IMG/VR virus record: IMGVR_UViG_3300045988_100041
Origin: a virus
Direction: 5' to 3' (one strand)
Length of the DNA stretch: 64,000 bases
Shown here: positions 3,289 to 63,841 of the stretch, piece after piece
How positions within the stretch are numbered: the first letter of the stretch is position 1
Layout: every line of letters begins with the position of its first letter
The notes under the pieces: model-generated
Told to the model about the DNA's origin: nothing
Databases searched by the model: none
The model's input: only the letters and a program-made list of their open reading frames with translations
Program-made: the position numbers and the translations under genes

Positions 3289-3592
3289 CTATGTAAACAT
3301 GATCGATTTTCTCAATTTTCTGACAGATAGAAGAGAATCAGCCGATGACGCCATGATGGGAATATACAGGAAAATGGTGCTTCTGGAACTGTCTCGTGAC
3401 CTCATTCAGATGAAACCACACCACTTTGTACCGATGGATACAATTCCTTTTGTCGGAGAATGTAATGGATGCAAGTGGAAATTGGTGCGGCCGCAGAAAT
3501 GCTCTTGTTGCAGGCGAAACCGCAATTTGAAGGACTGCTACGAGATGGAAGAGACGGAGGACGACGAAGATGACATGGACGAATACTGCTAG
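3281..3592 (+). CDS. Hypothetical protein with Cys cluster and acidic tail
   Basis: 103-aa ORF. CNGCKW...CSCC, then a C-terminal EETEDDEDDMDE run. Overlaps the upstream stop. Confidence 0.5.
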   Translation: MADYVNMIDFLNFLTDRRESADDAMMGIYRKMVLLELSRDLIQMKPHHFVPMDTIPFVGECNGCKWKLVRPQKCSCCRRNRNLKDCYEMEETEDDEDDMDEYC

Positions 3593-36547: not shown

Positions 36548-36775
36548 ATGAACAACAAATGGTGGCAGGTGCTGATTTCGAATCTTTTCAAGGTGAAGTC
36601 GCTCGTGACGATCATGCTGACATCGGCTTTCGTTGCGATGTCTTTGCGTGGGAAGGTTGAGCCGAAGGATTTCTATTCCATCATTGTGATGGTCCTGACG
36701 TTCTATTTCGGCTATCAGAGCGCGAAAACGGAAGACCAGACGGGAGGTGGCAGCGATGGCAAAGCTGGTAATTGA
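36548..36775 (+). CDS. Holin-like two-TM protein
   Basis: 75 aa with two TM segments and a charged C-tail. Overlaps the endolysin start. Confidence 0.5.
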   Translation: MNNKWWQVLISNLFKVKSLVTIMLTSAFVAMSLRGKVEPKDFYSIIVMVLTFYFGYQSAKTEDQTGGGSDGKAGN

Positions 36776-37439
36776 CAAAAGCATTCGGGCAAGCAGAATT
36801 GGCGGCAAGCGCCCTGTTTCGGCAGTTAAGGCAATCGTATTCCATTACACGGCGAACACTGGGAAAAGCGCGACTGCGAAGGGAAATGCCAGGTATTTTG
36901 CCGCAGGAAGCGAAGGACGCGCCGCCAGCGCCCATTACTGTGTTGACGAGGGTAACGTAGTATATGAGTGCGTTCCGCTCGATACGGTGGCGTGGAGCGT
37001 CGGAGACGGGAAGTCCGGAAAGTACGGAAGCCTATACAGCAACTACAACACAGTCTCCATCGAGATGGTCAGCCACACAGACGCATCAGGGACGTATTAC
37101 ATCCCGGAAAAGACGATGGAAAACGCGGCAAGGCTGTATCAGATGCTTTTGCCGCAGCTGCCGAACGTTCAGGCGGCAATCCGGCACTATGATGTGAGCG
37201 GAAAGCTGTGTCCGCTGCCGCTGATTAACGAGGAAAAATGGGAGAAGTTCCAGAAGCTTTTGAAGGAGGTAGATGAAGTGGTTGAAAAGAGCAAGATCAT
37301 TGTAGACGGAAAGGAAGTTGCCGTTGATCGGATTTTGAAGGACGGCACAAACTATGTAAAGGTACGCGATATTGCGGCGGCGCTCGATCTCAAGGTATCG
37401 AACAAGGGAAATATCGCGGTGCTTGAAACGAAGAAGTAA
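36756..37439 (+). CDS. Endolysin: N-acetylmuramoyl-L-alanine amidase (amidase_2/PGRP-type) with C-terminal wall-binding-like domain
   Basis: IVFHYTANTG...ASAHYCVD...WSVGD...IEMV...HYDVSGKLCP are amidase_2 hallmarks. The C-terminal DGKEVAVDRILKDGTNYVKVRDIAAALDLKV resembles copper-amine-oxidase-N-like repeats. Confidence 0.85.
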   Translation: MAKLVIDKSIRASRIGGKRPVSAVKAIVFHYTANTGKSATAKGNARYFAAGSEGRAASAHYCVDEGNVVYECVPLDTVAWSVGDGKSGKYGSLYSNYNTVSIEMVSHTDASGTYYIPEKTMENAARLYQMLLPQLPNVQAAIRHYDVSGKLCPLPLINEEKWEKFQKLLKEVDEVVEKSKIIVDGKEVAVDRILKDGTNYVKVRDIAAALDLKVSNKGNIAVLETKK

Positions 37440-37445
37440 GAGCAC

Positions 37446-37481
37446 AAAAAGCCGGGGGATCGACAATCCCTCGGCTTTTTG
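37446..37481. terminator. Bidirectional intrinsic terminator where the rightward and leftward gene arrays converge
   Basis: AAAAAGCCGGGGGA (stem 37450-37459), a 7-nt loop, then TCCCTCGGCTTTTT (stem 37467-37476). 10-bp stem with one G-U, an A tract to the left and a T tract to the right. Confidence 0.7.
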
Positions 37482-37494
37482 CATATATTGGAGG

Positions 37495-37785
37495 TTATAG
37501 GTTTGAAAGCGTTCCGTCACCGATGACGACGGCGTTTGTGAGGTCGCTGCCAAGGACAAAGACTGTGACCTGAGAGCCGACAGGCGCACTTGCGATGCTC
37601 GAAACATAGGGAAGGGCGATTTCTTTGTCGAAGGGGCGCTGGACGGTGAGCTTGCCGCCGGAGGCTCTTTTTGTGACCTCGGCGCGGAAGAACCAGACAT
37701 TTGAATGCGTCAGCTCTTCGACCTTTGGCTTAAAATAATCCCAGAGCCTGTCTGCAAAGCGTTTCATTTCCAGATTTTCATCCAT
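37495..37785 (-). CDS. Small OB-fold-like protein (resembles small phage baseplate/spike proteins)
   Basis: 96 aa from ATG 37785 (GGAGGAACTTCCA precedes it). FFRAEVTKRASGGKLTVQRPFDKEIALPYVSS...GSQVTVFVLGSDLTNAVVIGDG is a beta-rich OB-like pattern. Confidence 0.45.
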   Translation of the reverse strand: MDENLEMKRFADRLWDYFKPKVEELTHSNVWFFRAEVTKRASGGKLTVQRPFDKEIALPYVSSIASAPVGSQVTVFVLGSDLTNAVVIGDGTLSNL

Positions 37786-37972
37786 TGGAAGTTCCTCCTG
37801 TTCTGGATTCTTCAATCAGTATCGTAAAGAATCGATCTTCCGGCAGTTTCAGCGCCGCAGAATCAACGCTTTCGGCTTCAACGGTGATGATTTCGTTCGG
37901 TCTGTCATCACGGTAAACGACTTCGAAGGTGTATTTTTGTTTTACTACGTTTGATCTGAGATCCAGCGTCAT
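37778..37972 (-). CDS. Hypothetical small protein
   Basis: 64 aa; ATGA overlap with the upstream stop at 37969-37972. Confidence 0.45.
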   Translation of the reverse strand: MTLDLRSNVVKQKYTFEVVYRDDRPNEIITVEAESVDSAALKLPEDRFFTILIEESRTGGTSNG

Positions 37973-38319
37973 TCTTTCCACACTCCCTGAACGCCGAAGG
38001 TGATGCGCAGGGTTTCTCCGGACGGCGCGGCAAAACTCACATCGTCGGCACTTGCAATGAGGGCAGATAGTCTTTTGCGGACGCTTTCGTTGAAAATTCC
38101 AACAGGAAGGGGAATGTCCAGCATGACCATAGCGTTTCGCGCGGTGTTTTCCGGGGGACGGACGGTAACGGCTGCGTGCATGAGGTGCGCGAGTTCTTCT
38201 GCCTGACGGCGAAGGTCTGCAAAGAGGTTCATTTTCTCTTCATCAACAGAGGTTCCACGGAAGTTTTCATTTCGTTCGAGCATGGCTTCTACCATGGCGG
38301 CGGTTTTGGGATCTGTCAT
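37969..38319 (-). CDS. Hypothetical protein
   Basis: 116 aa; AAGGAG RBS. Preceded by a copy of the GGGACA-N15-TAGAAT box. Confidence 0.55.
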   Translation of the reverse strand: MTDPKTAAMVEAMLERNENFRGTSVDEEKMNLFADLRRQAEELAHLMHAAVTVRPPENTARNAMVMLDIPLPVGIFNESVRKRLSALIASADDVSFAAPSGETLRITFGVQGVWKE

Positions 38320-38365
38320 AATAAGTTCTCCTTTTCAAATTGAGTTTTGATCGTCTACATATTGG

Positions 38366-38394
38366 ATTCTACCGGGAATTTTCAGTTGTCCCGC
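38366..38394 (-). promoter_or_regulatory. GCGGGACA-N15-TAGAAT promoter-like box (copy a)
   Basis: - strand reads GCGGGACAACTGAAAATTCCCGGTAGAAT. It overlaps the 3' end of the desulfurase gene and lies ~45 nt upstream of the 38319 start. Confidence 0.45.
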
Positions 38395-39491
38395 TTTGCG
38401 GAAAGATTTTTCAGTTCTTTCACACACTGCGCAGTGATTTTCACTGCTTCATCGATCTTGGCAAAGTCTTTTTCCTGTTCGGCTCCGAATCTTGGCTGAT
38501 ATTCGTCCATCGGAAGCCGGAGCGTATAGTCAAAAGAAAACCGGACGGCGCTTCGGGCGCGTTCTTCCTGGTATCCAGCGGCAAGCAGGACTCTCGACGG
38601 CTTATTGTCTCCGCTGGAACACGCCGCACCGCCAGACACCATGACATTCTCAGAAGAAAGTCTCAGGACAAGGGCGGTATTTTCAACGCCTGGGAACGAG
38701 ATATTTGCGATATAGGGAGACTGCGAAGATTTGTTTCCTTCGTAGACGCTGCCGTTTAATTTTGCGTCCGGGATCTCGTTCATCATACCATCAATGAGCC
38801 GGTCGTGCAAGCGGCCTGCCATTTCTGCAAACTCCGCAAGATGCTGTGTCCGGAACCAGAGCGCCTGAGAAAACGCCGCAGCGAGTGCGACAGAAGGGGT
38901 TGCGAAATGTTCCAGTTCATAGATGCTTTCCGGATCTTTTGCAATCAGAACACCGATGCCGACGGGCGCGCCGAATTTATGGCCGCCGCCTGCAATGTAG
39001 TCGATTCCGTCCGACTTGTAATTGAGCTGGAATTTTCCCATGGCTGCGGTGCAGTCGGAAAAGCATACATTCCACGCGCCTGTGTTTTCTAGGTCGTAAA
39101 TGAATCCGGTTTCGTTGCAGGTGTGGATATGCGCAAGAGCGGCTTCTTTTTTGCGGGACCTGCTGTGAATCTTACCGTAATCGGGAAGTCTTTTATAGAC
39201 TGCGTCGTGTTCGTAGGAAGAACAAAGCGCGTCTCGATAATCGTTCAGGAGGCGAAGCGCTGCAAGGCGGCAGCTTTCGGTGGCGCTGGATGTGAAGATG
39301 ACCTGCTCCGGTTCGCAGTTTATGCACGCTGCGACGATTTTTTTCTGTTCCTGCAAAAAGGCGTTGTTTCTTGTCCCGCTTGCGTGGATGCTGTTTGGAT
39401 TCCCGACTTCACCACGGCATACCCTTGCAAATTCGCGCATGGATGAGGAAAGCACCGGCGATGTGGCTGCGTAGTCGAGGTAGATCAGCAT
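38382..39491 (-). CDS. Class V aminotransferase / cysteine desulfurase (NifS/IscS-like)
   Basis: 369 aa. IYLDYAATSP N-terminus, PLP-lysine motif GGHKFGAPVGIG, active-site loop SGGAACSSG, and His in SSYEHDAV. Confidence 0.85.
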   Translation of the reverse strand: MLIYLDYAATSPVLSSSMREFARVCRGEVGNPNSIHASGTRNNAFLQEQKKIVAACINCEPEQVIFTSSATESCRLAALRLLNDYRDALCSSYEHDAVYKRLPDYGKIHSRSRKKEAALAHIHTCNETGFIYDLENTGAWNVCFSDCTAAMGKFQLNYKSDGIDYIAGGGHKFGAPVGIGVLIAKDPESIYELEHFATPSVALAAAFSQALWFRTQHLAEFAEMAGRLHDRLIDGMMNEIPDAKLNGSVYEGNKSSQSPYIANISFPGVENTALVLRLSSENVMVSGGAACSSGDNKPSRVLLAAGYQEERARSAVRFSFDYTLRLPMDEYQPRFGAEQEKDFAKIDEAVKITAQCVKELKNLSAKRDN

Positions 39492-40000
39492 GGCGCGGTC
39501 CCTCCGAAGTTTGGAACGAAGGAAGAAAGAAGCTGATGATAGAACTTATTTTGCGCCTGCAGCTCAATGCACCGCTCTTTCAGCGAGGATAGTTCTGCGT
39601 CCGGTTCTTTGGAAACGGGAAGCACGCCGGAAGGCCCCGGATTTTTGGGTTCATTTGCGCCGCTCAGACCGATGGACACCAGAAGGGCGCTGTCTACGAG
39701 CTGCATTTCATGCTGCTCCAAGGTCGAGATATAGCTTCCAAGGCGTTCTTTGCTGACGGTATAGATGTTTTCACACAGGACGGTATTTTTCACGCCTTTC
39801 ATTGTGATTTCCACGTGCGTCGGAAGGGGCTTTTTCTTCTCTGCGGTCGTTAAGTAGCAGATCTCTATGTTCGGAGAAAATAGGTTATTTTTCTCGTTTG
39901 AAACGACAACGGCAGGTCTTGACTTGCGAATTTCACTTCCAAGCCCGTCTTTCCAGTTATCTACCCAGAAAATATCGCCGCGATGGATGCTACGTTCCAT
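39485..40000 (-). CDS. MazF/PemK-family endoribonuclease-like protein with ~60-aa C-terminal extension
   Basis: RGDIFWVD...RKSRPAVVVSN...CYLTT...THVEI...VLCENIYTVSKERL matches the PemK fold pattern. An extra coiled-coil tail (ELSSLKERCIELQAQNKFYHQLL) follows. The stop overlaps the desulfurase start (ATGCTGA). Confidence 0.7.
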   Translation of the reverse strand: MERSIHRGDIFWVDNWKDGLGSEIRKSRPAVVVSNEKNNLFSPNIEICYLTTAEKKKPLPTHVEITMKGVKNTVLCENIYTVSKERLGSYISTLEQHEMQLVDSALLVSIGLSGANEPKNPGPSGVLPVSKEPDAELSSLKERCIELQAQNKFYHQLLSSFVPNFGGTAPC

Positions 40001-40101
40001 TTCTTTCGTCCTTTCTTTCACATTTTTCTATGTACGGCGGCACGTCCGCACGATATGCCGCCTATTCAGTTTAATTGCGTTTGAACTGAATATTGAGGGT
40101 G

Positions 40102-40374
40102 TTATCTCACTGCGTCTTTCAGCGCCTTTGCGGGGCTGAAACGAACGACGAAGTGCTGGGGAACGTCGATGGTTTTGCCGGTATTCGGATTTCTCGACTG
40201 CTTGCTGGCGCAGTATTTCGCGGCGAATTTGCCGAAGCCCGGAACGTTCACGGTGTCATGCACGATGAGCGCTTCCTGCACCGCATCGAACACGGCATTT
40301 ACTGCGCAGATCGCCTGCGTCTTCGGAACGTCCATCCGGTTCGCTACGGCGGTTACGAGTTCGTCTTTGTTCAT
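40102..40374 (-). CDS. hup: HU/IHF-family DNA-binding protein
   Basis: 90 aa. MNKDELV...GFGKF...R.GRNP.TG..I-like pattern (SKQSRNPNTGKTIDVPQHFVVRFSPAKALKDAV). GGAGG RBS. Confidence 0.85.
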   Translation of the reverse strand: MNKDELVTAVANRMDVPKTQAICAVNAVFDAVQEALIVHDTVNVPGFGKFAAKYCASKQSRNPNTGKTIDVPQHFVVRFSPAKALKDAVR

Positions 40375-40401: not shown

Positions 40402-40477
40402 TGGTGAGCCGTCCCGGAGTCGAACCGAGATTTTACCAGTTATGAGCTGGTCGCTCTAGCCTTTGAGATAACGGCCC
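40402..40477 (-). tRNA. tRNA-Met/Ile2 (anticodon CAT), CCA encoded
   Basis: Reverse complement folds as a cloverleaf: GGGCCGT / ACGGCTC acceptor, ACCAG-CTCATAA-CTGGT anticodon arm, CTCGG-TTCGACT-CCGGG T arm, ACCA end. No initiator features. Confidence 0.85.
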
Positions 40478-40853
40478 ATCGATTCCGGCTTGACGTACCG
40501 GCCGCGAGGTCTTGTGCACAGACCAACGGCAAATCAGGTGATTGCACACCGTCTCCACCTTGTTATCCTCATGATGGACGATCTGAGTGGGGAGTTCCCA
40601 TTTCGCTTGTTTACTCCCAAACTTCGCTATCGGCTATATCAACCCGACGACACCGCTGCCAGATGCGGAGGTTTCATTCCATCGGGGGAAGTCATCCGAT
40701 GGCGGGCATGGGCGGCTTGGCAGAATCGAACTGCCTCGGGTCAGTTGCTCGTCGCTTCCCTTTACCAAATGCCGCGTGTTGCCACACTGACGCAGTGGCC
40801 GCGGAGGGTTGGCTTTATTTATAACGCGCCACGACTCCCACAAGAGGGCGCTT
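40478..40853 (-). ncRNA. Unassigned structured non-coding segment (candidate large ncRNA)
   Basis: 376 nt with no credible ORF, co-oriented with the flanking tRNAs. Contains a T-loop-like hairpin GGCAG-TTCGATT-CTGCC (40719-40735) and helices GGGAGT/ACTCCC (40590-40618) and TGTGCA/TGCACA (40513-40548). Confidence 0.3.
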
Positions 40854-41012
40854 TGGCGGATGCGGCGGGGATTTGAACCCCGCATGGTGCAGACAGTATG
40901 CGACGAGCTTTATTCCCGTCCGAGGTGGCTGCTTGAACCCCAATAGGTTTGAGTGTGCCGCGCTTTCCTGCACCGCATACCCTTGCTACCTTTTCCATTC
41001 GGCCACGCATCC
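40854..41012 (-). ncRNA. 159-nt tRNA-like RNA: acceptor/T-arm minihelix with a ~120-nt non-tRNA insert, GCCA 3' end
   Basis: - strand: GGATGCG (41006-41012) pairs with CGCATCC (40858-40864). T arm GCGGGG-TTCAAAT-CCCCGC, discriminator G, CCA encoded. The interior has competing helices GTATGCG/CGCATAC and GGTGCAG/CTGCACC, and I found no anticodon arm. Confidence 0.45.
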
Positions 41013-41021
41013 ATATTTTGC

Positions 41022-41345
41022 TCAGATTTTTGCGGTACAGCGGTATTTGCAGGTTTTCCAGTCCGCGAGGCTGCACGACTCGAAGATGCAGGGTGATCCG
41101 GCGTACTCCGGCTTGTCGCAGAATTCGTGGATCAGCTCCGGATACAGGGCGTTCATTGCAAAAAGGTTTCTTGCCGAATCCGGCCCGACAAACATCGGCT
41201 TTCCTTTCGGTGCGTAGTCACGGATCTGATAGGGGATTTCGTCCCGTTCGCTGTAGAAATGGACCGCGACCGGCGTCACGTCCTTCTCTACGACGACGTA
41301 GACATTTTTCGTGCCGTTGGTGAGATAGCGAATGTCCAAGCTCAT
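41022..41345 (-). CDS. Hypothetical 107-aa protein embedded in the RNA island (C-terminal Cys cluster)
   Basis: Strong RBS AAGGAGGAAAACAAATG. MSLDIRYLTNGTKNVYVVVEKD...CDKPEYAGSPCIFESCSLADWKTCKYRC. Confidence 0.6.
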   Translation of the reverse strand: MSLDIRYLTNGTKNVYVVVEKDVTPVAVHFYSERDEIPYQIRDYAPKGKPMFVGPDSARNLFAMNALYPELIHEFCDKPEYAGSPCIFESCSLADWKTCKYRCTAKI

Positions 41346-41713: not shown

Positions 41714-41787
41714 TGGAGTGCGTGAGGAGAATCGAACTCCCACCATCAGATTGGAAGTCTGATGTTCTGCCATTAAACTACACGCAC
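41714..41787 (-). tRNA. tRNA-Gly (anticodon TCC), copy 1
   Basis: GTGCGTG/CACGCAC acceptor, TCAGA-CTTCCAA-TCTGA anticodon arm, GGGAG-TTCGATT-CTCCT T arm, U73, CCA encoded. Confidence 0.85.
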
Positions 41788-41794
41788 ATAAATG

Positions 41795-41916
41795 GCTCCC
41801 CGTTTTACTCCGGTGCGGGAGCGTTCTTCCCGAAAACCCATAGCCAGGCTTCCCAGCTTGGAGCACCGGAATCTCTGAAATGTTCCGGTGAGCGCCTTCG
41901 CTTACATGGGTGACGC
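41795..41916. ncRNA. Repeated structured element X, copy 1 (122 nt)
   Basis: ~84% identical to 42126..42239. Shared helices carry compensatory changes; details are in the findings. Strand unresolved. Confidence 0.5.
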
Positions 41917-41927
41917 TTTAAAGAGTA

Positions 41928-42001
41928 TGGAGCGGCATACGGGAGTTGAACCCGCGTTTTCAGATTGGAAGTCTGACGTGCTTCCGCTGCACCAATGCCG
42001 C
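41928..42001 (-). tRNA. tRNA-Gly (anticodon TCC), copy 2
   Basis: GCGGCAT/ATGCCGC acceptor, anticodon arm identical to copy 1, GCGGG-TTCAACT-CCCGT T arm, U73, CCA encoded. Only ~60% identical to copy 1 outside the anticodon arm. Confidence 0.85.
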
Positions 42002-42125
42002 ATAAGGCGCGCATAGGATGGAAGAGGTACAAGACCATCCCATGCACTTCCGGTCTTTCCCGGCTGCCAGAACAATCCCTATGGAGGGGCAGGCGGGAGG
42101 CTCGTGAACCACTGCCTGCATAGAA

Positions 42126-42239
42126 GCTCCCCATTTTACTTGGGTGCGGGAGCGCTCCTACCCAAAACCAACAGCCAAGCTTCCCATCTTGGAGCGCCGG
42201 ACGATTCCGGCGAGCGCCTGCGCTTACGTTGGCGGTCGC
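42126..42239. ncRNA. Repeated structured element X, copy 2 (114 nt)
   Basis: Paralog of 41795..41916, with a shortened hairpin loop and compensated stem positions. Confidence 0.5.
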
Positions 42240-42300: not shown

Positions 42301-42371
42301 TGGTGGGAAAATGCGGAATTGAACCGCAGCATGAAGGCTTTATGTTCCTCCCTAGCGCACCTGCTTTTCCC
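42301..42371 (-). ncRNA. 71-nt tRNA-like minihelix RNA or attP-type tRNA remnant next to the integrase
   Basis: - strand: GGGAAAA...TGCGG-TTCAATT-CCGCA-TTTTCCC-A-CCA gives a perfect acceptor and T arm. There is no canonical D arm or anticodon arm. Confidence 0.4.
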
Positions 42372-42400
42372 GCATGGCGTGACGGGTCACGCCTTGTTTT

Positions 42401-43501
42401 CTATGCGATCTCCGACCGGCTTTTTTTGACGGTAGGCTGCGGCCGGAGGTTTGAGAAAAAATCATCGCCCTGCATTTCAAGATACCGCTTGTTGCGGTCT
42501 GCCTGACGGTCTTTTTCTTCCTGCACAAGAAGCGTCTGGCGGCGTTTCCTGCGGCTGGTGAGTTTGCCGGAATAGATCTGCGTGACTTCTGCCGATTCAT
42601 GCCCGAGCTTTGCTTGCAGTTCTTCCAGAGGCATGCCGCCGTTGAGATCGAGCCGCGCGCCGACGTGCCGCAGGTCGTGGGACCGGACATTATCTACACC
42701 TGTCACGCGCTTTACATGGCGGCGGACAAGCTCTGTCAGCCATTGACGGCTGCCGGCGTGCCAGGATTCTGCGTTGAAGTTTCTGGACGTTCTGACTTTT
42801 TCTGCGCAGGTTCCAAAGAGCGGGTCATCGTCTTTTGCATAGGAAGGGCGGATGCCGCTTTTAAGATAGAGCCTTACGGCGGTCTGCGCGATGGGCGGGA
42901 AGTCTACAACGCGGTATTTGTTGCCCTTGCCGTGCTCTACGGTCAGCTCTTCGTTTTCCCAGTCCAAGTCGGCAGGCGTGAGGGCGAGAAGTTCGCAGTT
43001 TCTGATCTCTGTGGACAGAAACAGGACGGCGATTGCATAGTTTCGCTCCCATTCCGGAACGCCGCTTGATTTTGGGGAGTTGTTCCGCCACAAAAGTGCC
43101 GCCTGTTCGTCGGTCAGAATCTGGTCATAGGGTCTTGCATCTTCCTGACGGGTGTCCGGCATGAGGAATTTGGAGACGGGGTTTTTGTCATAAAAGCGGT
43201 AGTCTCCAAGCTGGGGAGACGAGGCGTATTCATAAAATCCGGAAAGAACTTTCAGATACTGCTTGACGGTGGACGGTTTTCTGCCGGTTGCAAGCAGCAT
43301 ATCACGCCACGCCTGAATGTCTGTGAAGGATACCTCGTGGTTCCAGTTGTCCCGATCTTCAATCATAAAGAGGCTGAACAGTTTTATCACGTTGTCGATA
43401 TTTTCAACCGTATTTTCTGAGCGCCCGATGGCGATCATGTTTGAACGGTAGGAACGGTAGGCTTCCATGAACTTCTTTTCTTCCTTGATGGGCGGTGCCA
43501 T
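42401..43501 (-). CDS. int: Tyrosine recombinase / phage integrase
   Basis: 366 aa. N-terminal SAM-like core-binding region, and a C-terminal catalytic pattern ...R...HDLRHVGA...LGHESAEVTQIYSG (R-H-R-H/Y). Confidence 0.9.
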   Translation of the reverse strand: MAPPIKEEKKFMEAYRSYRSNMIAIGRSENTVENIDNVIKLFSLFMIEDRDNWNHEVSFTDIQAWRDMLLATGRKPSTVKQYLKVLSGFYEYASSPQLGDYRFYDKNPVSKFLMPDTRQEDARPYDQILTDEQAALLWRNNSPKSSGVPEWERNYAIAVLFLSTEIRNCELLALTPADLDWENEELTVEHGKGNKYRVVDFPPIAQTAVRLYLKSGIRPSYAKDDDPLFGTCAEKVRTSRNFNAESWHAGSRQWLTELVRRHVKRVTGVDNVRSHDLRHVGARLDLNGGMPLEELQAKLGHESAEVTQIYSGKLTSRRKRRQTLLVQEEKDRQADRNKRYLEMQGDDFFSNLRPQPTVKKSRSEIA

Positions 43502-45826: not shown

Positions 45827-45931
45827 TGGGGGGATATTCGCCCCCGCTTTTTTACAATATCACGTTTGGAAAGCGAAACATAGCGCAAAGAGGCGAAAGC
45901 GTTTCATAATTGATCGTTGGAGGTATTATTT

Positions 45932-47281
45932 ATGCGTGAATCGGAAAGCATTATTATGCAGATTGACATTGTTGATTCCCTGATTCATTTTATTAAGTCA
46001 AAATACGGAGTTAGAACGAAAGCTATCTTAATGTACGAGCGAACCGAACAAATACCTTTGGAACTACTTGAACCATATGTTGACCTTCTGAATAAGAATG
46101 AGATGAAATTCATAGAAATTTTAAGCCGAACTGATGATATGGTTATTATCCGGTATGTTGATAACGCACTCTTGCAAAAAAAACCGTTTTATTTCGCCAG
46201 AAACGACCTGTTCAATAAGTATAAAGAGGAAAATGATTATTTCCAGCTTTCAATAAAAAACAACGTTTGGGGAAACATGTGGGAAAACGAAAAATCCATT
46301 CCATATGTCAGGAAACTAACGTCTGGCTATTCCTATATTTGCTTTGAAAAGAAGTATTCAACCATTGTTGCGTATAATGTATCTCAACAATTTCACTTTA
46401 CCCCGGAAATTATTGACGTGGATGACATCCCAGAAGTTTGTTATATGGTTGAAGAAATTCCTTCCTCACCAATGCCTAGATACTGCAAAGATAACAATGC
46501 GCGTCTCGGAATTTGGTCATATATTACTCAAAATCTTATGATCCCCGCTGTTCAAATAGATGACATCAAAGGGGAAATCAAATTACAGCACAGATCAGCG
46601 GTTTCGGATGAGATCATACAATACAGACAAGGGATGCGTGTCGATATTAAACATGTTGCGCGCAGTTCATGGGAAGCAAACATTTCAAGAATATTTCAAA
46701 AACTTGGCGTTCCGTATGAGTACGAACGGGAAGCATTCAGCTTTGATGATTTCATCTATGTACCAGATTTTTTTCTCCCAAACAATATAATCGTAGAAGT
46801 GAAAGGATTCTGGGATAATAATAGCAGGAGAAAGGTTGTTGCTCTTAAAAAGAATCGACCGGAATATACTATTCTTCCAATTGATTCTGATATGTACGAA
46901 TCTTTGAGGCTGAAATATTCGAGTCAGATTTCGCAATGGGAAGAAAATGTTTCTGTCAGTTGCAGAGATTATGAAGTTAGCATTGTCGGTATGAAATTCT
47001 GTGCAAGCAAAGAGACGCTGCAATCATTAACTGTTGGAGACAATCTGCTTTTAGAGCGAGAACCAAAAAATAGATTTGATAAGAATGCCATTCTAGTAAA
47101 AACAATGAGCGGCGCACCGATAGGACATTTTTGTGCTGATTGGGCTGCTGTATTCGCTCCGAAAATGGACATTGGAATGACTTACCATGCGAAGATCTCA
47201 GACATTCAGCGAAGTGCAATTTGCGCGACTGTGAGAAGAAGCAATTTCGATGCTGAAATTCTATATGATTTTTTCACCTGA
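45932..47281 (+). CDS. Three-part protein: unknown N-domain, PD-(D/E)xK nuclease-like core, C-terminal HIRAN domain
   Basis: 449 aa from ATG 45932 (GGAGG RBS). SSWEANISRIF...YVPDFFLPNNIIVEVKGF gives an E...PD...ExK nuclease signature. VSIVGMKF...GDNLLLEREPKNRFDKNAILV...IGH is a HIRAN signature. The gene is visibly AT-rich relative to its flanks. Confidence 0.8.
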   Translation: MRESESIIMQIDIVDSLIHFIKSKYGVRTKAILMYERTEQIPLELLEPYVDLLNKNEMKFIEILSRTDDMVIIRYVDNALLQKKPFYFARNDLFNKYKEENDYFQLSIKNNVWGNMWENEKSIPYVRKLTSGYSYICFEKKYSTIVAYNVSQQFHFTPEIIDVDDIPEVCYMVEEIPSSPMPRYCKDNNARLGIWSYITQNLMIPAVQIDDIKGEIKLQHRSAVSDEIIQYRQGMRVDIKHVARSSWEANISRIFQKLGVPYEYEREAFSFDDFIYVPDFFLPNNIIVEVKGFWDNNSRRKVVALKKNRPEYTILPIDSDMYESLRLKYSSQISQWEENVSVSCRDYEVSIVGMKFCASKETLQSLTVGDNLLLEREPKNRFDKNAILVKTMSGAPIGHFCADWAAVFAPKMDIGMTYHAKISDIQRSAICATVRRSNFDAEILYDFFT

Positions 47282-52632: not shown

Positions 52633-52980
52633 TCATGCTCGGGTGGTCAGCGGCTGGACTTGCGCGGCGGTGAAGAAGTGGGAAAGTTTCAGGCGGCAAT
52701 AGCCGCCGGTTTTTTCGGATTCTTCCGTGTCCGGGAGATCGTCCGCCTCTTTTCCTTTGATATACTTCCAGATCGAAAAGCTCGCGACGGCGTGTTCGCC
52801 CTTTTTCACGCAATAGCCGCGCTGTTTCCAGGCGTTAAAGGTGTGGATTTCTTCCGGGAGTTCCAGCCGTTCGGTGGTTCCGTCATCGTTTTCGACTTCC
52901 ACGAAGCGGCCCGTGCCGGTTAAAACGCCCTCATTCATCAGGCGGAAGGATTCGTTCAGGATAATCGATTCGTTTGTCAT
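52633..52980 (-). CDS. ArdC-N-terminal-like (ssDNA-binding, antirestriction-associated) small protein
   Basis: 115 aa from ATG 52980 (CGGAGGTAAACACCATG). HTFNAWKQRGYCVKKGEHAVASF resembles the W..Q....G..V.KGE core of ArdC N-domains (from memory). Confidence 0.45.
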   Translation of the reverse strand: MTNESIILNESFRLMNEGVLTGTGRFVEVENDDGTTERLELPEEIHTFNAWKQRGYCVKKGEHAVASFSIWKYIKGKEADDLPDTEESEKTGGYCRLKLSHFFTAAQVQPLTTRA

Positions 52981-53135
52981 GGTGTTTACCTCCGTTTTTT
53001 GGTGAGAATTATTTTGAGTTGAAATTTTTGAAGCTTGAAAGTTGAACTCGTTCACAAAAGAAGCACAAATGCCACTCTCGCAAAATATGAGTTTAAGTAA
53101 ATCGACTGTTTTGTGTTTGGTTTGTTCTGTTTTCA

Positions 53136-56214: not shown

Positions 56215-56305
56215 TACCGGCCGCCCCGGACACCCTAGCAGAGCCGCACCGGGCACCAAAGCGGCCCCGCCCCATCAAATAAAACGAAAAAGGAGATCAT
56301 CACCA

Positions 56306-57040
56306 ATGAGAAAATCACAGATCATGCGGCAGGCGTGGAGCCTTTACCGCGCCACCGTCGCGGAGTTCCCGGAAACCCGCAGCCGCGCACAGTTCGCGCT
56401 TTGCCTGAAAGAAGCGCACCGCATCGCAAACACCGCCGCGAACGCCCGCCGCGAGTGGGAGCAAATGACCGGCGCGCAGCAGTTTGAAGCCTTAACGCGC
56501 ATGGCGTGGGCGGTCCGGAAGCGCGCAGAAGCCACCGGGCGCGGAATCGATACAGAGTGGATACGCACCACGGACGACGCGCAGACCGTCGCCGCCGACG
56601 CATGGCCGCGCGTTTTGTCTGCGCTGGACCGCAACGACCAGCGCGAGGACCCGCGCCCCCTTGTGTTTATCCTTTACGCCGCCTGCACCCAGGCAGCGCA
56701 CAGCATCAGCCGCGCCGAAATCCGGCACGTTTCCGCCTGCATCAGCGCAGACGCCATCACCCAAGCCGCGCAGCTTGAAACGGCAGGCGCACAATCCCCA
56801 CTTGATATGCTCCCCAGCGTCACCGCGTCCCGCTTCGGCGGAGACCTGGAAGAAGGCTACAGCATCCGCGCCGCCCTGGACACCGCCGCCGGAGACAAGG
56901 ACGGACGCGCCATCGTCGCAGGCATCGCCGCCGGTTACACGGTCCGCGAGATTGCCGATCAACTAGGCATGAGCAAAAGCGCCGTACAGCGCCGCATTGA
57001 CAAGATACGCGCCGCCTACCTCGCGCAGATGCAGGCATAA
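56306..57040 (+). CDS. Sigma-70-family-like protein (region 2-like and region 4 HTH)
   Basis: 244 aa. The C-terminal AIVAGIAAGYTVREIADQLGMSKSAVQRRIDKIRAAY is a region-4.2 / LuxR-type HTH. DDAQTVAADAWPRVLSAL...FILYAACTQAA is region-2-like. AAAGGAG RBS. Confidence 0.55.
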   Translation: MRKSQIMRQAWSLYRATVAEFPETRSRAQFALCLKEAHRIANTAANARREWEQMTGAQQFEALTRMAWAVRKRAEATGRGIDTEWIRTTDDAQTVAADAWPRVLSALDRNDQREDPRPLVFILYAACTQAAHSISRAEIRHVSACISADAITQAAQLETAGAQSPLDMLPSVTASRFGGDLEEGYSIRAALDTAAGDKDGRAIVAGIAAGYTVREIADQLGMSKSAVQRRIDKIRAAYLAQMQA

Positions 57041-60321: not shown

Positions 60322-60451
60322 GTACATCAAGCTTTCCGACACGCTTGAAATGCTACAAAAACTGGATACGGCTGGTCACAATTCTTCTCCGCAATGGTCA
60401 TTTTCAAGTGACGGGGTGCAGCTATGGAGAGCTTACGAGCGACACAGATGA
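60308..60451 (+). CDS. Hypothetical 47-aa protein
   Basis: ATG 60308 follows GGAGG. Translation begins MAKVKYIKLSDTLEMLQKLDTAGH... Confidence 0.35.
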   Translation: MAKVKYIKLSDTLEMLQKLDTAGHNSSPQWSFSSDGVQLWRAYERHR

Positions 60452-61026
60452 TTGGCGGGAATGGTGAACAAGATCGACGCCCGACAGATCTTTATCCTAC
60501 CCCGCCAGATGTCACAGAAGCGCTTTTACGGTTCCTAGATATTCCGTCATTTTTCCGTGTTTGGGACCCTGCAGCTGGTGAAGGTGATATGGCGAGGCAA
60601 ATTGCAATGCATGGTCACACGGTCTATGAGTCTGACATTATGACAGGAACCGATTTCTTAACCGTCGATGGTCCACCTAACGCAGAACTATGGCTGCCGT
60701 GTGACTGGATTATTACAAATCCGCCGTTTGCGCTTTCGGAGCAGTTTATTCGCCACGCAAATGAACTTAGGCATCCGTTCGCTATGCTGTTGAAATCGCA
60801 GTATTGGCACGCATCAAAAAGGCTGAGATTGTTCCGAGAGATACGACCGGATTATGTGCTGCCGCTTACATGGAGACCGAACTTCTACTTCAAGGAAGAA
60901 CACGGAGGCGCACCACTTATGGATGTGATGTGGTGTGTGTGGAGTGCAGAAAACGGGCGGAAATCGCATCAACCTACAATTTTTAAACCGTTGGAGAGAC
61001 CTAAAATGCGAGAGGAGAATCCATGA
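60424..61026 (+). CDS. Orphan N6-adenine-type DNA methyltransferase-like protein
   Basis: YPTPP, motif I-like VWDPAAGEGDM, and motif IV-like ITNPPF. No cognate nuclease is visible. ATG 60448 is an alternative start. Confidence 0.65.
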   Translation: MESLRATQMIGGNGEQDRRPTDLYPTPPDVTEALLRFLDIPSFFRVWDPAAGEGDMARQIAMHGHTVYESDIMTGTDFLTVDGPPNAELWLPCDWIITNPPFALSEQFIRHANELRHPFAMLLKSQYWHASKRLRLFREIRPDYVLPLTWRPNFYFKEEHGGAPLMDVMWCVWSAENGRKSHQPTIFKPLERPKMREENP

Positions 61027-61286
61027 AACAATACTGCCGCTACTGCGTAAATGCTTATCTTCAAGGTGATGACATGATTTGGTGCAAGCCAAAAGACGAA
61101 ATTCGAACTGACCGTCAGATAACGCGGCTGAACCGCTGCCCACACTTCGAATTTTGCTCGATAGACGTTCTTAACCCAGAACGGGAGTACAGGCCGGTTG
61201 AGAAACGGAGGGCGGCGCAGAAAAAGGAACCGGACATGGAGCAAACCACTATGTTCGGCGGCTTGGAATGGGAGAAAAGAAAATGA
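61023..61286 (+). CDS. Small Cys-containing protein
   Basis: 87 aa. CRYC...C...CPHFEFC. Confidence 0.5.
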   Translation: MKQYCRYCVNAYLQGDDMIWCKPKDEIRTDRQITRLNRCPHFEFCSIDVLNPEREYRPVEKRRAAQKKEPDMEQTTMFGGLEWEKRK

Positions 61287-61774
61287 GTAAACCAAAATAC
61301 ATGAAAGGCGATTGCATTCGGTCGCTGGACGATTTGGTTCTGCAAGAAAACATCTATTGGAACGGGAGAATTTGGAATCGAAAGTGGTTCATGAACCTTC
61401 AGATTCAAATGCTTCTGTCTCTAATCAAGCACAAGGCACTACAGTACGCTGTGAGGCGGGACGGCATCACAACGGGAGAGTTTGTCGAGCCGGTGTTATG
61501 GCATAAACTCAACGAACGCCCACTGACGGATGCGGAAAAATCTGAATTTTCCGAGCATGGCTATTCGGATTTTGAAATCCCAGAGTATATGTTCGACTGC
61601 CCTATGCCTGATGATGAGCAGGAAATCCTAGTCGCAACCGAGTGGGGAGTGGACAAGGATGTGTGCTGTGCCGATACCGACGATTGGGGAAACCATTCGT
61701 TTGGATTGGAGGGACGCGGAGATTGGGACGACGTGATCGCGTGGGCGGAAATGCCGAAGTACGATTCTGAGTGA
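61283..61774 (+). CDS. DUF551-like protein, paralog of 1710..1994
   Basis: ATGA overlap with the upstream stop. EYMFDCPMPDDEQEILVATEWGVDKDVCC...GRGDWDDVIAWAEMP. Confidence 0.6.
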   Translation: MSKPKYMKGDCIRSLDDLVLQENIYWNGRIWNRKWFMNLQIQMLLSLIKHKALQYAVRRDGITTGEFVEPVLWHKLNERPLTDAEKSEFSEHGYSDFEIPEYMFDCPMPDDEQEILVATEWGVDKDVCCADTDDWGNHSFGLEGRGDWDDVIAWAEMPKYDSE

Positions 61775-62238
61775 CGGAAATTCCAGCGCGAATGGTGCCG
61801 CCCGATTATCACTGGGAAAAAGTTCAACGAATTTTGGAAGGAGACGACATGACAGACAAGGAAATTATACAGGTACTGCGTATCTGCGCGACGCATATAG
61901 AGAAGGGTTGCGGGCTTTGCCCACAAATGAAGTATGTGCGTTGCACGGAGCGGCTGGCGGATGAAGCTATCACCATGATCGAGCGCCTGACCGCCGAGAA
62001 TGCGGCGCTGCGGGAGAAAGTGCCGCAGTGGGTCAGCGTAGATGACAGGCACCCAAAGCCTGGGACGCGCGTTCTTGCTACGGACGGCGTATTTGTTGGA
62101 GAAGCATACCGAACAAGCGCTGATACGTGGCGCAGATATGATGGCATTGCAATGCGGGACTGCATCGGCAGCGTAGTCACCCACTGGATGCCGCTGCCGG
62201 AAGCGCCGGAAACGCCGGAGGGAGGAGAAAAGGCATGA
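61771..62238 (+). CDS. Protein with C-terminal DUF551-like domain
   Basis: WVSVDDRHPKPGTRVLATDGVFVGEAYR...VTHWMPLPEAP. GTG start listed; internal ATGs are possible. Confidence 0.5.
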   Translation: MTEIPARMVPPDYHWEKVQRILEGDDMTDKEIIQVLRICATHIEKGCGLCPQMKYVRCTERLADEAITMIERLTAENAALREKVPQWVSVDDRHPKPGTRVLATDGVFVGEAYRTSADTWRRYDGIAMRDCIGSVVTHWMPLPEAPETPEGGEKA

Positions 62239-62495
62239 GCAAAATCAAAAAGGTAGGATTTGGGTATACGGTGCCGAAAGAACGGTACCAGGAAGCCGCG
62301 GAGAATATCCAAAAGCTTGGCGCTATGTACGCAGAGTACCTGCAGAAGAAAAATTTCGATGGGCTTGGAGAGCAAGATGCGCAAGAGCTCATGGCCGACA
62401 TCCTGCTTGCCTGCACTGCGCTGCTCTATGTCGCAGAATTTGCGGCAGATAAATGCCATATGGTGCCGCTGCCGGGAAAGGATGGAAAAGCATGA
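62235..62495 (+). CDS. Hypothetical small protein
   Basis: 86 aa; ATGA coupling on both sides. Confidence 0.45.
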   Translation: MSKIKKVGFGYTVPKERYQEAAENIQKLGAMYAEYLQKKNFDGLGEQDAQELMADILLACTALLYVAEFAADKCHMVPLPGKDGKA

Positions 62496-62773
62496 AGATT
62501 TACATCGCCGGTAAAATCACGGGCGATCAGGGGTGTCAGGCGAAATTTCAAAGGGCGGCAGTGGGGTTGCGGATGTGTGGGAACATCGTGCTGAATCCGG
62601 CGGAGCTGCCGGAGGGGATGGAGGCTGCGGACTATATGCGCATTTGTATGGCGATGATCGACGTAGCGGACTTGGCCGTTTTCCTGCCAGACGCGAAGGA
62701 CAGCGCAGGCGCGCGCCTCGAGAAAGCATATTGTGAATACGTCGGGAAGGAGTATGTGACATGGAACGACTGA
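62492..62773 (+). CDS. DUF4406-like (nucleoside 2-deoxyribosyltransferase-like) protein
   Basis: MKIYIAGKITGD... N-terminus and the ~93-aa size match what I recall for DUF4406. Confidence 0.55.
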   Translation: MKIYIAGKITGDQGCQAKFQRAAVGLRMCGNIVLNPAELPEGMEAADYMRICMAMIDVADLAVFLPDAKDSAGARLEKAYCEYVGKEYVTWND

Positions 62774-63404: not shown

Positions 63405-63567
63405 CCGCTGCGGGGCGGAGATAAACCCCGTGAGTTCTGCGACGTATGTAAACGTGCGAAGCGCGTTCCATGAAGAATCACCTGATATTGAGCTTTGCTG
63501 TTCGTGCGCGATGCAAATCAAAGAATGGCTTAAGTCGCGTGTAGAGGAGGGCAAGAAGGATGGCTGA
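63370..63567 (+). CDS. Small Zn-ribbon protein
   Basis: CDRCG...CCSC. The start is ambiguous (63370 / 63379 / 63382). Confidence 0.4.
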   Translation: MARMMATKRVCDRCGAEINPVSSATYVNVRSAFHEESPDIELCCSCAMQIKEWLKSRVEEGKKDG

Positions 63568-63841
63568 ACTGAAACCGTGCCCGTTCTGTGGCGGTGAAGT
63601 TAGTCTTGTTCCGTGCGATGACGAAGGGAATCTACATGATGAGGCATATAGAGAACATCCATATAGTGGACTTGGCTTTATGCTTCACCATGCTCACGAG
63701 GACAACCCGGAATGCCCGATTGCAAGCTATGAGTGCGATGGCGGGATTTTAGGTGGTGTGTATATTTATGACACAGAAGAACAAGCCACTGAAGCATGGA
63801 ACAAGAGGGATGAAAATTATGATGAAGGTGCATTTTGGTAA
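63560..63841 (+). CDS. Lar-family-like (restriction alleviation) protein
   Basis: The N-terminal LKPCPFCGGEV motif is typical of Lar-like proteins (from memory). Confidence 0.5.
   Translation: MAELKPCPFCGGEVSLVPCDDEGNLHDEAYREHPYSGLGFMLHHAHEDNPECPIASYECDGGILGGVYIYDTEEQATEAWNKRDENYDEGAFW

Follow-up and report, generated by a model that had tools for sequence, protein, structure and literature searches.

A conserved gene module downstream of phage tRNAs

The locus lies on the minus strand of a 64,000-nucleotide stretch of viral DNA (IMG/VR record IMGVR_UViG_3300045988_100041), referred to here as the window. In the direction of transcription, which runs towards the late operon, the arm comprises an integrase, a tRNA array, an HU gene, a MazF-like gene, a cysteine desulfurase gene and three small conserved ORFs, and it ends at a bidirectional terminator that also serves the lysis genes. 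A preliminary description of this DNA had placed the six ORFs from HU onwards directly downstream of phage tRNAs. The ORF list of the window contains all six at their original coordinates on the minus strand, and a tRNA with anticodon CAT ends 27 nt before the start of HU, in agreement with that description. The lineage that carries the module consists of uncultured temperate phages of the human gut, and the region is best explained as the accessory, lysogeny-side arm of one such phage of about 80 kb. Conservation of this gene set in dozens of contigs is far beyond chance: the genes of the module are real and conserved.

We compared the locus with 38 IMG/VR loci of its own clade (clade A) and 23 loci of a sister clade (clade B). 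The first gene of the arm encodes a tyrosine integrase (42401..43501, minus strand; PF00589, E = 1e-16; phrog_1, E = 3.3e-39), which is 62–82% identical in clade A relatives and about 50% identical in clade B, where it is located downstream of the desulfurase. At the other end, the arm is separated from the endolysin gene by a hairpin (37445..37481) with 16-nt arms that are 94% complementary and T-runs on both strands.

The tRNA array, also on the minus strand, contains two copies of tRNA-Gly(TCC) (41928..42001, 68.8 bits; 41714..41787, 71.5 bits) and, immediately 5′ of HU, the CAT-anticodon tRNA (40402..40477, 51.4 bits), all called by ARAGORN and Rfam. The last of these is probably tRNA-Ile2-like. 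In both clades, almost every locus has a tRNA 25–60 nt before HU, in one case (L047) tRNA-Ile(TAT), and tRNA-Gln(TTG) is found in several of the clade A arrays. Within the array lies a conserved 107-aa ORF (41022..41345, minus strand), whose start at ATG 41345 is suggested by the length of its homologues. Such homologues, 64–97% identical, occupy the interval from integrase to HU in 52 retrieved loci; Pfam, PHROG and PADLOC profiles gave no match to the ORF.

The HU/IHF-type DNA-binding protein (40102..40374, minus strand; 90 aa; PF00216, E = 4.9e-26; phrog_379) scores under the NCBIfam HU/IHF equivalog cut-offs. Of the 61 loci in the two clades, 60 have HU upstream of the desulfurase; the HU sequence is 47% identical between the window and locus L009, and its two cysteines are not conserved. 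Phages are known to encode HU/type II DNA-binding proteins, such as TF1 of SPO1. The protein resembles these in its 90-aa HU fold and its Firmicute-type phage background, but differs in its constant slot between tRNA and desulfurase, near the integrase. Just past the HU stop codon is a GC-rich hairpin (40036..40062, minus strand; intergenic fold −28.3 kcal/mol, z = −3.2). Relatives have a hairpin with a different stem sequence at the same position between HU and the MazF-like gene, and it is possible that this element is an attenuator or processing site preceding the latter.

An orphan MazF-like protein with a conserved C-terminal helix

The next gene (39485..40000, minus strand) encodes an orphan, long-tailed MazF/PemK endoribonuclease-like protein of 171 aa (PF02452, E = 1.6e-23). 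The presence of this gene was correctly noted before, but its start is most likely ATG 40000 rather than GTG 40021, because homologues begin with MERSIHRGD. The protein matches phrog_1936 (E = 2.6e-30; residues 8–166 on profile positions 5–174 of 188), for which the PHROGs name ‘MazF-like growth inhibitor’ is an annotation, not an assayed function. Its closest PDB sequence matches are the MazF proteins of Staphylococcus aureus, Bacillus cereus and Bacillus subtilis (E of approximately 1e-15), and Foldseek aligned its AF2 model (mean pLDDT 81) with Firmicute MazF at a TM score of approximately 0.85 and 34–37% identity over about 113 residues. An invariant Arg and an invariant Thr align with the conserved Arg and Thr of S. 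aureus MazF. The fold, these two residues and the PTHV motifs are common to the phage protein and Firmicute MazF (EndoA/YdcE; B. subtilis 1NE8 and 4MDX, S. aureus 4MZM, B. cereus 7BXY). In contrast to the Firmicute MazEF type II toxin–antitoxin systems, the phage-carried gene is not accompanied by MazE, its product adds a 60-aa C-terminal linker and helix, and its LCE motif carries an invariant Cys at the position of a Leu in S. aureus MazF. The 101-nt gap between HU and the MazF-like gene contains no coding-strand ORF of at least 20 aa, and the original reading of a MazF/PemK fold lacking a MazE gene therefore holds.

The tail had been described as a coiled-coil extension of about 60 aa. Its length is as described, but it is not one long coiled coil: a core (residues 1–112) is followed by a variable linker (113–133) and a single confident helix (134–161; blocks of mean pLDDT 87–92). 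Both the length and the sequence of the linker are hypervariable: its identity is 5–10% even between proteins whose cores are 84% identical, and pLDDT falls below 50 at residues 116–132. The helix motif ERDxYKxLYExL is kept across the whole tailed-MazF family. The phrog_1936 profile spans both core and tail, and other members (for example in Faecalibacterium phages FP_Brigit and FP_Lagaffe, and in Lactobacillus and Coprococcus/Agathobacter phages) are likewise orphans in early or accessory regions; only the clade studied here places the gene between HU and a desulfurase, overlapping the desulfurase start.

The tail of the MazF-like protein, rather than the adjoining gene, is likely to be its regulatory or partner-binding element. 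One possible, if rather doubtful, form of this is a self-contained fused toxin–antitoxin, in which the helix would fold back to occupy the dimer's RNA-binding groove and keep the nuclease off until a trigger, such as a protein of a competing phage or proteolysis of the linker, freed it. If true, the lysogen would gain an abortive-infection-type protection, or the phage a timed host shut-off. A family-wide helix joined to the core by a hypervariable, low-confidence linker is consistent with this arrangement, as is the lack of a MazE-like gene upstream or downstream and, across some 43 other contexts, of a neighbour that stays the same. The catalytic residues are also kept, and a temperate phage would need some control over such toxicity, although a nuclease for lytic growth only would require no antitoxin. 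The profile of the tail, however, matched no MazE and no PDB chain, and the tail could instead serve oligomerization or target binding. CapRel(SJ46) is a prophage-borne, fused toxin–antitoxin defence protein with no separate antitoxin gene, and provides an analogy in the way it works, with a toxin domain and a C-terminal extension in a single polypeptide. The toxin folds are unrelated (RelA/SpoT-like in CapRel(SJ46), MazF here), and autoinhibition by the tail is here only proposed.

A cysteine desulfurase with an intact active site

Downstream is a group-I (NifS/IscS-like) class-V PLP cysteine desulfurase of 369 aa belonging to a phage-specific clade (38382..39491, minus strand; PF00266, E = 2.6e-30), with IscS-type enzymes as its closest PDB matches (3e-31). 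The PLP lysine and catalytic-cysteine loop reported earlier are indeed intact: 20 homologues all retain Lys172 (GGHKFGAP) and Cys291 (SGGAACSSG), along with His95, Asn126, Asp146 and Arg317. The phage enzyme shares with IscS/NifS (Escherichia coli IscS 1P3W, Mycobacterium tuberculosis 4ISY) its class-V PLP fold, a long SxGxAC loop for catalysis, the PLP lysine and the active-site His, Asp and Arg. It differs in being only 25–31% identical to the cellular enzymes among the matches listed, in having an invariant Ala for IscS Gln183, in missing about 20 large-domain residues between His95 and Asn126, in an unrelated C-terminal segment, and in having no IscU, NifU or SufE-type partner gene nearby. 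These differences suggest that partner specificity, and even substrate, may not be those of IscS. The clade appears to be phage-borne, as its homologues are named Caudoviricetes proteins in the source databases and no listed match from species-representative cellular genomes exceeds 31% identity.

The preliminary description had raised a DndA/SspA-like role, in which the enzyme would supply sulfur for phosphorothioation of phage DNA, with HU as DNA-binding partner, and so allow restriction evasion. We consider this the least probable of the readings discussed here, and hardly credible. DndA and SspA belong to the same enzyme superfamily, and the PADLOC models for SspA (3.3e-53) and DndA (9.9e-51) do match, but these models would be expected to match any IscS-like enzyme. 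The desulfurase falls below all NCBIfam equivalog cut-offs, including that for DndA (TIGR03235; 118.6 bits, cut-off 480), and neither DndBCDE nor SspBCD, the partners that define these systems, turned up among the window ORFs scanned or in the roughly 10 kb past the window's end in relatives. The PAPS-reductase family (PF01507) includes DndC and SspD, and some relatives carry a gene of this family with a C-terminal Cys cluster, in a slot occupied in other relatives by a DNA methylase; in a distant viral locus (L070), such a gene lies less than 1 kb from a desulfurase. Against this, the window ORFs scanned include no PAPS_reduct or other Dnd/Ssp partner, and the desulfurase shares a contig with PAPS_reduct in only 4 of the 55 viral loci that have the latter. 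More broadly, neither the window ORFs scanned nor the genes called in the first 10 kb or so past the window's end in close relatives yielded a phage-encoded sulfur acceptor or sulfur-using enzyme, or a match to Dnd/Ssp, PP-loop or radical-SAM genes.

We infer a generic role in sulfur supply as the default assignment. As a catalytically competent PLP enzyme, the desulfurase would draw sulfur from L-cysteine, hold it as an enzyme-bound persulfide on Cys291 and hand it to host acceptors, which may be Fe–S scaffold proteins or a thiouridylase (ThiI or MnmA, for example). Sulfur supply would thereby rise during infection or lysogeny, the presumed times of expression.

Since the desulfurase lies constantly behind phage tRNAs, tRNA thiolation is a reasonable sub-option within this role. 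A stricter version, in which the enzyme is dedicated to thiolating phage and host tRNAs through ThiI or MnmA-type enzymes of the host and thereby ensures full modification of the tRNAs just upstream during infection, seems unlikely to us. The order of array, tRNA(CAT), HU and desulfurase is kept in both clades despite desulfurase identities of 35–37%, although common descent of these phages can explain such synteny. Firmicutes possess dedicated desulfurase–thiouridylase pairs, for example YrvO–MnmA and NifZ–ThiI, and would offer a precedent, but no phage thiouridylase or PP-loop ATPase was present in the gene sets surveyed above. tRNA-Gln(TTG), an s2U34 substrate, occurs in several clade A arrays, whereas neither Gly(TCC) nor CAT, the tRNAs called in the window, is a classical substrate of this kind.

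The MazF-like and desulfurase genes are separable

The junction between the two genes reads GCGCCATGCTGATC. The ATGCTGA overlap is real, and the translational coupling proposed from it is borne out by this sequence. The Shine–Dalgarno motif of the desulfurase, GGAGGG (39500..39505, minus strand; read from the sequence), lies inside the last MazF-like codons, which encode FGGT. Clade A relatives have equivalent motifs within their MazF tail codons; in clade B the motif is in an intergenic spacer. The clade A pair always overlaps or abuts, mostly by a start/stop overlap, which is typically 4 nt and is 7 nt in the window.

Whether the pair occurs together elsewhere received a divided answer. The order HU–MazF–desulfurase is found in all 38 clade A loci from IMG/VR. 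All 23 clade B loci have instead tRNA(CAT)–HU–desulfurase with no MazF, and no MazF remnant was found when the gap between HU and desulfurase was searched. Conversely, tailed MazF (phrog_1936) occurs in the 43 or so other phage loci surveyed without desulfurase or HU, next to early or replication genes that are unrelated to it (for D5 primase, SSB, dUTPase, ThyX, a sigma factor or HNH proteins), and a start/stop overlap with whichever gene follows is also common there. The two genes are therefore separable. Given that clade B lacks MazF and that tailed MazF exists elsewhere without desulfurase, the deeper linkage is that of tRNA, HU, desulfurase and orf116, the first small ORF downstream, and MazF is a clade-specific, fast-evolving insertion. 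These phages are all related (integrase 50–82% identical, terminase 66% identical to that of clade B record MT835520), so that shared gene order may reflect ancestry, and the link between tRNAs and desulfurase is weakened likewise.

The explanation we favour, at somewhat better than even probability, is that the MazF-like and desulfurase genes are independent cargo, co-expressed only through tight packing of phage genes. The MazF-like protein, with its Firmicute-type core bearing the catalytic Arg and Thr, its flexible linker and its conserved amphipathic helix, would act alone as a sequence-specific endoribonuclease, in host take-over or the exclusion of competitors. A fused toxin–antitoxin would concern the tail only and is compatible with independent cargo. 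As a counterpoint, the clade A pair is never separated, as a functional pair would also show.

Such a functional pair might be a reversed toxin–antitoxin system, in which the desulfurase or its product neutralizes the toxin, or might use MazF as an adaptor that binds RNA and directs sulfur transfer to it. We judge it very unlikely that the two genes form one unit of this kind. That the genes are neighbours in every one of the 38 clade A loci, and overlap at start and stop in most of them, would fit a unit, but each gene is widespread without the other. Desulfurase-linked MazF proteins do have their own distinct C-terminal motif (FGGT, WPKG); this motif overlies the desulfurase Shine–Dalgarno, however, and so reflects a nucleotide-level constraint. 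The genes do not co-vary: comparison of the window with L009 gives 91% identity for the desulfurase and only 60% for MazF, which disfavours the earlier suggestion that the desulfurase controls the toxin. Furthermore, retention of the MazF catalytic residues would be unexpected for a mere adaptor, and an enzyme of 369 aa that conserves its active site would be an unlikely antitoxin.

Small conserved ORFs downstream of the desulfurase

The three ORFs that complete the arm are on the minus strand, and these neighbouring small proteins are without Cys. The first, orf116 (37969..38319), encodes a small acidic α/β protein (AF2 pLDDT 80.8) that is the most constant protein neighbour 3′ of the desulfurase, being present in clade A and most clade B loci. 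The versions from the two clades are related by hhalign (97.7%, E = 1.9e-12), distant members are found without a desulfurase, and a fold search gave no informative match. The second, orf67 (37778..37981), is a small conserved phage protein with 41–75% identical homologues in clade A loci and no match in Pfam, PHROG, NCBIfam or PADLOC family searches. The third, orf106 (37495..37815), corresponds to the N-terminal domain of a tail fibre encoded on its own, and is 72–80% identical to residues 1–96 of Gly-rich, repeat-containing tail-fibre-like proteins of 269–594 aa that are encoded on the late strand in relatives. Its true length is probably 96 aa, from ATG 37785, and its counterparts in other relatives are stand-alone ORFs of 97 aa.

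Organization of the accessory arm

The window is phage DNA throughout. Its late genes end with an Amidase_2 endolysin (36747-37439, plus strand), and between them and a convergent minus-strand accessory arm lies a hairpin (37445-37481) that has T-runs on both strands. This arm starts with a tyrosine integrase (42401-43501), downstream of which lie two tRNA-Gly(TCC) genes and then a conserved 107-aa ORF. They are followed by a tRNA with anticodon CAT (40402-40477), an HU gene (40102-40374) that begins 27 nt after this tRNA, a 101-nt spacer with two hairpins, the tailed MazF-like gene (39485-40000), the overlapping cysteine desulfurase gene (38382-39491) and three small ORFs of 116, 67 and 106 aa (orf116, orf67 and orf106). 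Profile and structure matches of HU, the MazF-like protein and the desulfurase showed that the coordinates and gene identities in the preliminary description were correct. A DNA-level search of GenBank phages returned no match to the region.

In the CAT tRNA, C4 pairs with G69 and C5 with G68, and the GGG/CCC anticodon stem that marks initiators is missing. In L047, one of the IMG/VR viral loci that we compared with the window, the same slot holds a tRNA-Ile(TAT) (3397-3472). On account of these two features, the CAT tRNA may be of the AUA-decoding tRNA-Ile2 type rather than a tRNA-Met. Each tRNA-Gly(TCC) gene is preceded by a similar unit of roughly 100 nt with hairpin potential (41790-41925 and 42005-42140, minus strand), as read from the sequence. 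ARAGORN at a lowered threshold also called three insertion-bearing tRNA-like sequences on the minus strand that default settings missed (approximately 40710-40802, 40854-41012 and 42301-42403). One contains an insert of 8 nt and another an insert of 74 nt, and the middle one ends with a canonical T-arm, acceptor and CCA. The third lies directly downstream of the integrase and might be an attP-borne tRNA fragment.

The MazF-desulfurase pair is specific to one clade

In the protein database, homologues of the MazF-like protein and the desulfurase repeatedly occurred on common contigs, and the contexts that we fetched showed the order HU-PemK-Aminotran_5 with a 4-nt overlap on contigs of 65-100 kb. 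We then used profiles of both proteins to survey IMG/VR, where 287 contigs bear the desulfurase, and looked for all three genes, HU included, in each fetched locus. Clade A, to which the window belongs, comprises 38 loci with desulfurases 51-91% identical to that of the window; the MazF-like gene is directly upstream of the desulfurase in all 38, and HU is present in every locus but one, whose contig is itself truncated. The sister clade B comprises 23 loci with desulfurases 35-37% identical to that of the window. Here HU is directly upstream of the desulfurase in 23 of 23 loci, none contains MazF, and the HU-desulfurase gap holds no MazF remnant. More distant viral desulfurases have neither HU nor MazF as a neighbour. 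Conversely, a tailed MazF without HU or desulfurase was found in approximately 43 further viral loci, followed by genes for a D5 primase-helicase, SSB, dUTPase, ThyX, a sigma factor, HNH, Lar and others, and these genes often overlap the MazF stop codon too. The co-occurrence in other phages on which the proposal of a MazF-desulfurase partnership depended thus holds across clade A but fails in clade B and in the desulfurase-free MazF loci.

Other parts of the arrangement are shared more widely. A tRNA(CAT) lies 25-60 nt upstream of HU in nearly all loci of both clades, with other tRNAs before it, and the orf116 family is found downstream of the desulfurase in both (hhalign probability 97.7%, E = 1.9e-12). 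Because the tRNA slot, HU and orf116 are kept in both clades, the stable core is tRNA(CAT)-HU-desulfurase-orf116, close to the integrase, which in clade B lies downstream of the desulfurase instead. MazF is either a clade-specific insertion into this core or was cleanly lost from clade B. As all of the phages concerned are related (integrases 50-82% identical; terminase 66% identical to that of a clade B GenBank record), the shared gene order may reflect inheritance rather than functional constraint.

A probably phage-private cysteine desulfurase

The desulfurase matched PF00266 (E = 2.6e-30) and IscS-type structures (3e-31), consistent with a class-V aminotransferase fold, and its Lys172, within GGHKFGAP, aligns with the PLP lysine of IscS. 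In an alignment of 20 homologues reaching down to 35% identity, His95, Asn126, Asp146, the PLP-binding Lys172, the catalytic Cys291 and Arg317 were invariant. Cys291 sits in an SxGAAC loop (SGGAACSSG) and, like His95, Asp146 and Arg317, aligns with its IscS counterpart, whereas Gln183 of IscS is replaced by an invariant Ala150. The preliminary description of an apparently intact enzyme, with both the PLP lysine and the catalytic cysteine loop, was therefore borne out by residues conserved in all 20 sequences. Scores against curated models were far below their cut-offs (in bits: NifS, 146.9 versus 530.75; IscS, 104.3 versus 643.2; DndA, 118.6 versus 480; PRK02948, 111.3 versus 304), which places the protein, as judged by these profiles, in the superfamily but outside every named subfamily. 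The PADLOC SspA and DndA models also matched it, an outcome to be expected of any IscS-like enzyme. All its closer relatives come from metagenomes, the few named ones being labelled Caudoviricetes. A search of bacterial genomes, one representative per species, revealed no prophage copy or close cellular homologue among the matches listed, the best of which had 31% identity. We consider the enzyme most likely to be private to phages and, by its residues, catalytically intact.

We then asked which partners might receive its sulfur. A DndA/SspA-like role in DNA phosphorothioation had been one suggestion. Dnd and Ssp systems combine the desulfurase with DndC/SspD (PAPS-reductase-like), the DndD/SspC ATPase and DndE/SspB, but Pfam scans of 49 window ORFs detected neither a Dnd/Ssp partner nor a PP-loop thiolase or radical-SAM enzyme. 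In close relatives about 80 kb long, genes called over roughly 10 kb past the window end lacked the same classes, apart from a variable PAPS_reduct cargo gene that lies upstream of the query gene in L246. A tblastn search of the window with the PAPS_reduct protein of a relative was also negative. With the DndA cut-off also missed, the phosphorothioation role is very improbable. Linkage to PAPS reductases was rejected, as desulfurase-bearing contigs hold only 4 of 55 viral PAPS_reduct loci. A variable cargo slot upstream of a DUF551 gene (approximately 60400-61800 in the window; 8005-8838 in L245; 8235-9104 in L246) is occupied in one close relative by a C5 DNA methylase and in another by a protein of the PAPS-reductase family that has a cluster of cysteines at its C terminus; the window ORFs in this slot have no Pfam match to either family. 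Transfer RNA thiolation, in which IscS works with ThiI, MnmA or TtcA, requires a thiouridylase or PP-loop ATPase; none is phage-encoded in the ORFs scanned, but a host enzyme of this kind could serve the phage desulfurase.

Candidates within the arm were also considered. The small neighbours were ruled out as sulfur acceptors because none has a cysteine, and the HU cysteines were ruled out as persulfide acceptors because neither is conserved. AlphaFold2 modelled orf116 as a small alpha/beta domain (pLDDT 80.8). A frataxin- or IscX-like regulator of the desulfurase was not recovered: no PDB match was better than E = 4e-3, TM scores were low, and the remaining matches were uncharacterised viral proteins. 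At E = 0.001 or better, the orf116 family numbers 157 representatives; the members listed are nearly all short, none of them has an informative domain fusion, and two distant members that we looked up both lie in unrelated early-gene arrays. A broader scheme would unite the phage tRNAs, HU, desulfurase and orf116 in a sulfur-modification module, with the small acidic orf116 protein as adaptor and the phage's own tRNAs or HU-bound DNA thiolated; clade A would have recruited the tailed MazF as a nuclease against unmodified (host) RNA, the modification marking self. We consider this scheme very improbable. In the most likely reading, the desulfurase would hand sulfur to host acceptors, with Fe-S assembly or tRNA thiolation as alternatives.

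In anaerobes, Fe-S enzymes and tRNA thiolation depend centrally on sulfur mobilisation. An abundant, uncultured lineage of temperate human-gut phages has long kept a private, intact desulfurase, and although the enzymes of the two clades are only about 35% identical, the gene is placed in the same way behind tRNAs and HU. That a phage carries a desulfurase of its own points to a bottleneck in the host, one that has so far gone unstudied.

An orphan MazF with a tethered helix

The MazF-like protein matched PF02452 above cut-off (E = 1.6e-23) and phrog_1936, a PHROGs family annotated 'MazF-like growth inhibitor' whose profile extends over the tail (residues 8-166). Since homologues begin with MERSIHRGD, its start is most likely the ATG at 40000, giving 171 aa. 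AlphaFold2 predicted the core (1-112) with confidence (pLDDT mostly 84-95), followed by a linker with a low-confidence stretch (116-132) and a confident helix (134-161). Foldseek matched the model to Firmicute MazF structures (E = 2e-12, TM approximately 0.85), in agreement with a PemK/MazF SH3-like barrel. In the alignment with Staphylococcus aureus MazF, Arg35 and Thr58 (178-aa numbering) fall on its conserved Arg and Thr. Both are invariant or nearly so in 25-58 homologues; we take them to be equivalent to the catalytic R25 (beta1-beta2 region) and T48 of Bacillus subtilis MazF. PTHV and LCE motifs are also invariant. The tail helix has a family-wide motif of roughly ERDxYKxLYExL, and the linker varies in length, with only 5-10% identity even when the cores of the two proteins compared are 84% identical.

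A MazEF type II toxin-antitoxin system has an adjacent, co-transcribed cognate MazE/PemI-like antitoxin gene, usually upstream. The MazF-like gene has none, and its lack upstream had been stated in the preliminary description: the upstream gene is HU, and the coding strand of the 101-nt HU-MazF gap contains no ORF of at least 20 aa. With HU upstream and a 369-aa enzyme downstream, its neighbours are unlike those of a MazEF operon, and no neighbour of the tailed MazF is constant across the other phage loci surveyed. A search of the PDB with a tail profile retrieved neither MazE nor any other solved chain, so a relationship of the helix to MazE was not upheld. Taken together, the protein is most likely an orphan tailed MazF endoribonuclease, with its own C-terminal helix as the best candidate for control. 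The large phrog_1936 family, without an antitoxin gene and with a conserved tethered helix, exists so far only as an annotation. Should this helix prove to be a built-in antitoxin or a trigger sensor, these proteins would be MazF-based single-chain toxin-antitoxins, with a bearing on phage-phage exclusion in the gut.

MazF and the desulfurase appear to act separately

The preliminary description had also raised functional coupling of the two proteins, which our data do not support and which is improbable, though conceivable, within clade A. When the window is compared with its closest IMG/VR relative, the desulfurases are 91% identical, the MazFs 60% and the HUs 47%, and both these unequal rates of change and the separability of the genes argue against a single machine. 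The only sequence feature specific to desulfurase-linked MazFs is their extreme C terminus (FGGTAPC or WPKGAA), which coincides with the desulfurase Shine-Dalgarno sequence (GGAGGG, AAAGGAG, GAAGGAGG); in clade B, that sequence lies in the intergenic spacer. A further argument is a GC-rich hairpin directly 3' of the HU stop codon (40036-40062, minus strand), which is kept at the same position in clade A relatives with differing stem sequences. The hairpin may be an attenuator, terminator or RNA-processing site before the toxin gene, and suggests attenuated read-through as an ordinary means of holding toxin levels low. HU itself has a full-length Bac_DNA_binding fold (PF00216, E = 4.9e-26, residues 1-89 on 1-89 of 90) and scores below the HU-alpha, HU-beta and IHF equivalog cut-offs.

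We conclude that MazF and the desulfurase are most likely two independent accessory functions in a lysogeny-side arm. As the survey makes clear, neither the adjacency of two phage genes nor a start/stop overlap between them is more than weak evidence that they work as a pair. In the literature on phage cysteine desulfurases, tailed or fused MazF and phage MazF-like genes, we found no description of the module, the desulfurase or the tailed MazF.

Other elements of the window

The last small ORF of the arm, orf106 (37495-37815, minus strand), shares 72-80% identity with residues 1-96 of tail-fibre-like proteins that are 269-594 aa long and have Gly-rich linkers and repeats. Full-length homologues are encoded in L003 (12040-12849), L022 (7562-8737) and L042 (7275-9059). 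In some relatives, these proteins lie on the late strand after the lysin, whereas the window and others have the 96-aa domain alone on the opposite strand. No convincing inverted repeats flank orf106, which does not favour an invertible segment.

A low-GC patch (45917-47281, plus strand; 42% versus approximately 52%) encodes a 454-aa fusion of phage endonuclease I and a HIRAN domain. Weak or partial matches to the ArdC N terminus and Lar, and a DUF4406 (nucleoside deoxyribosyltransferase-like) protein, were found at 52633-53055 (minus strand), 63560-63841 (plus strand) and 62453-62773 (plus strand). They suggest a set of anti-restriction and nucleotide-metabolism genes in the early region. Finally, an Rfam RAGATH-5 RNA match (56226-56281, plus strand) scored 54.2 bits against a gathering score of 50, and directly downstream of it is an ORF with a sigma-70 region-4/HTH-like C terminus (56306-57040).
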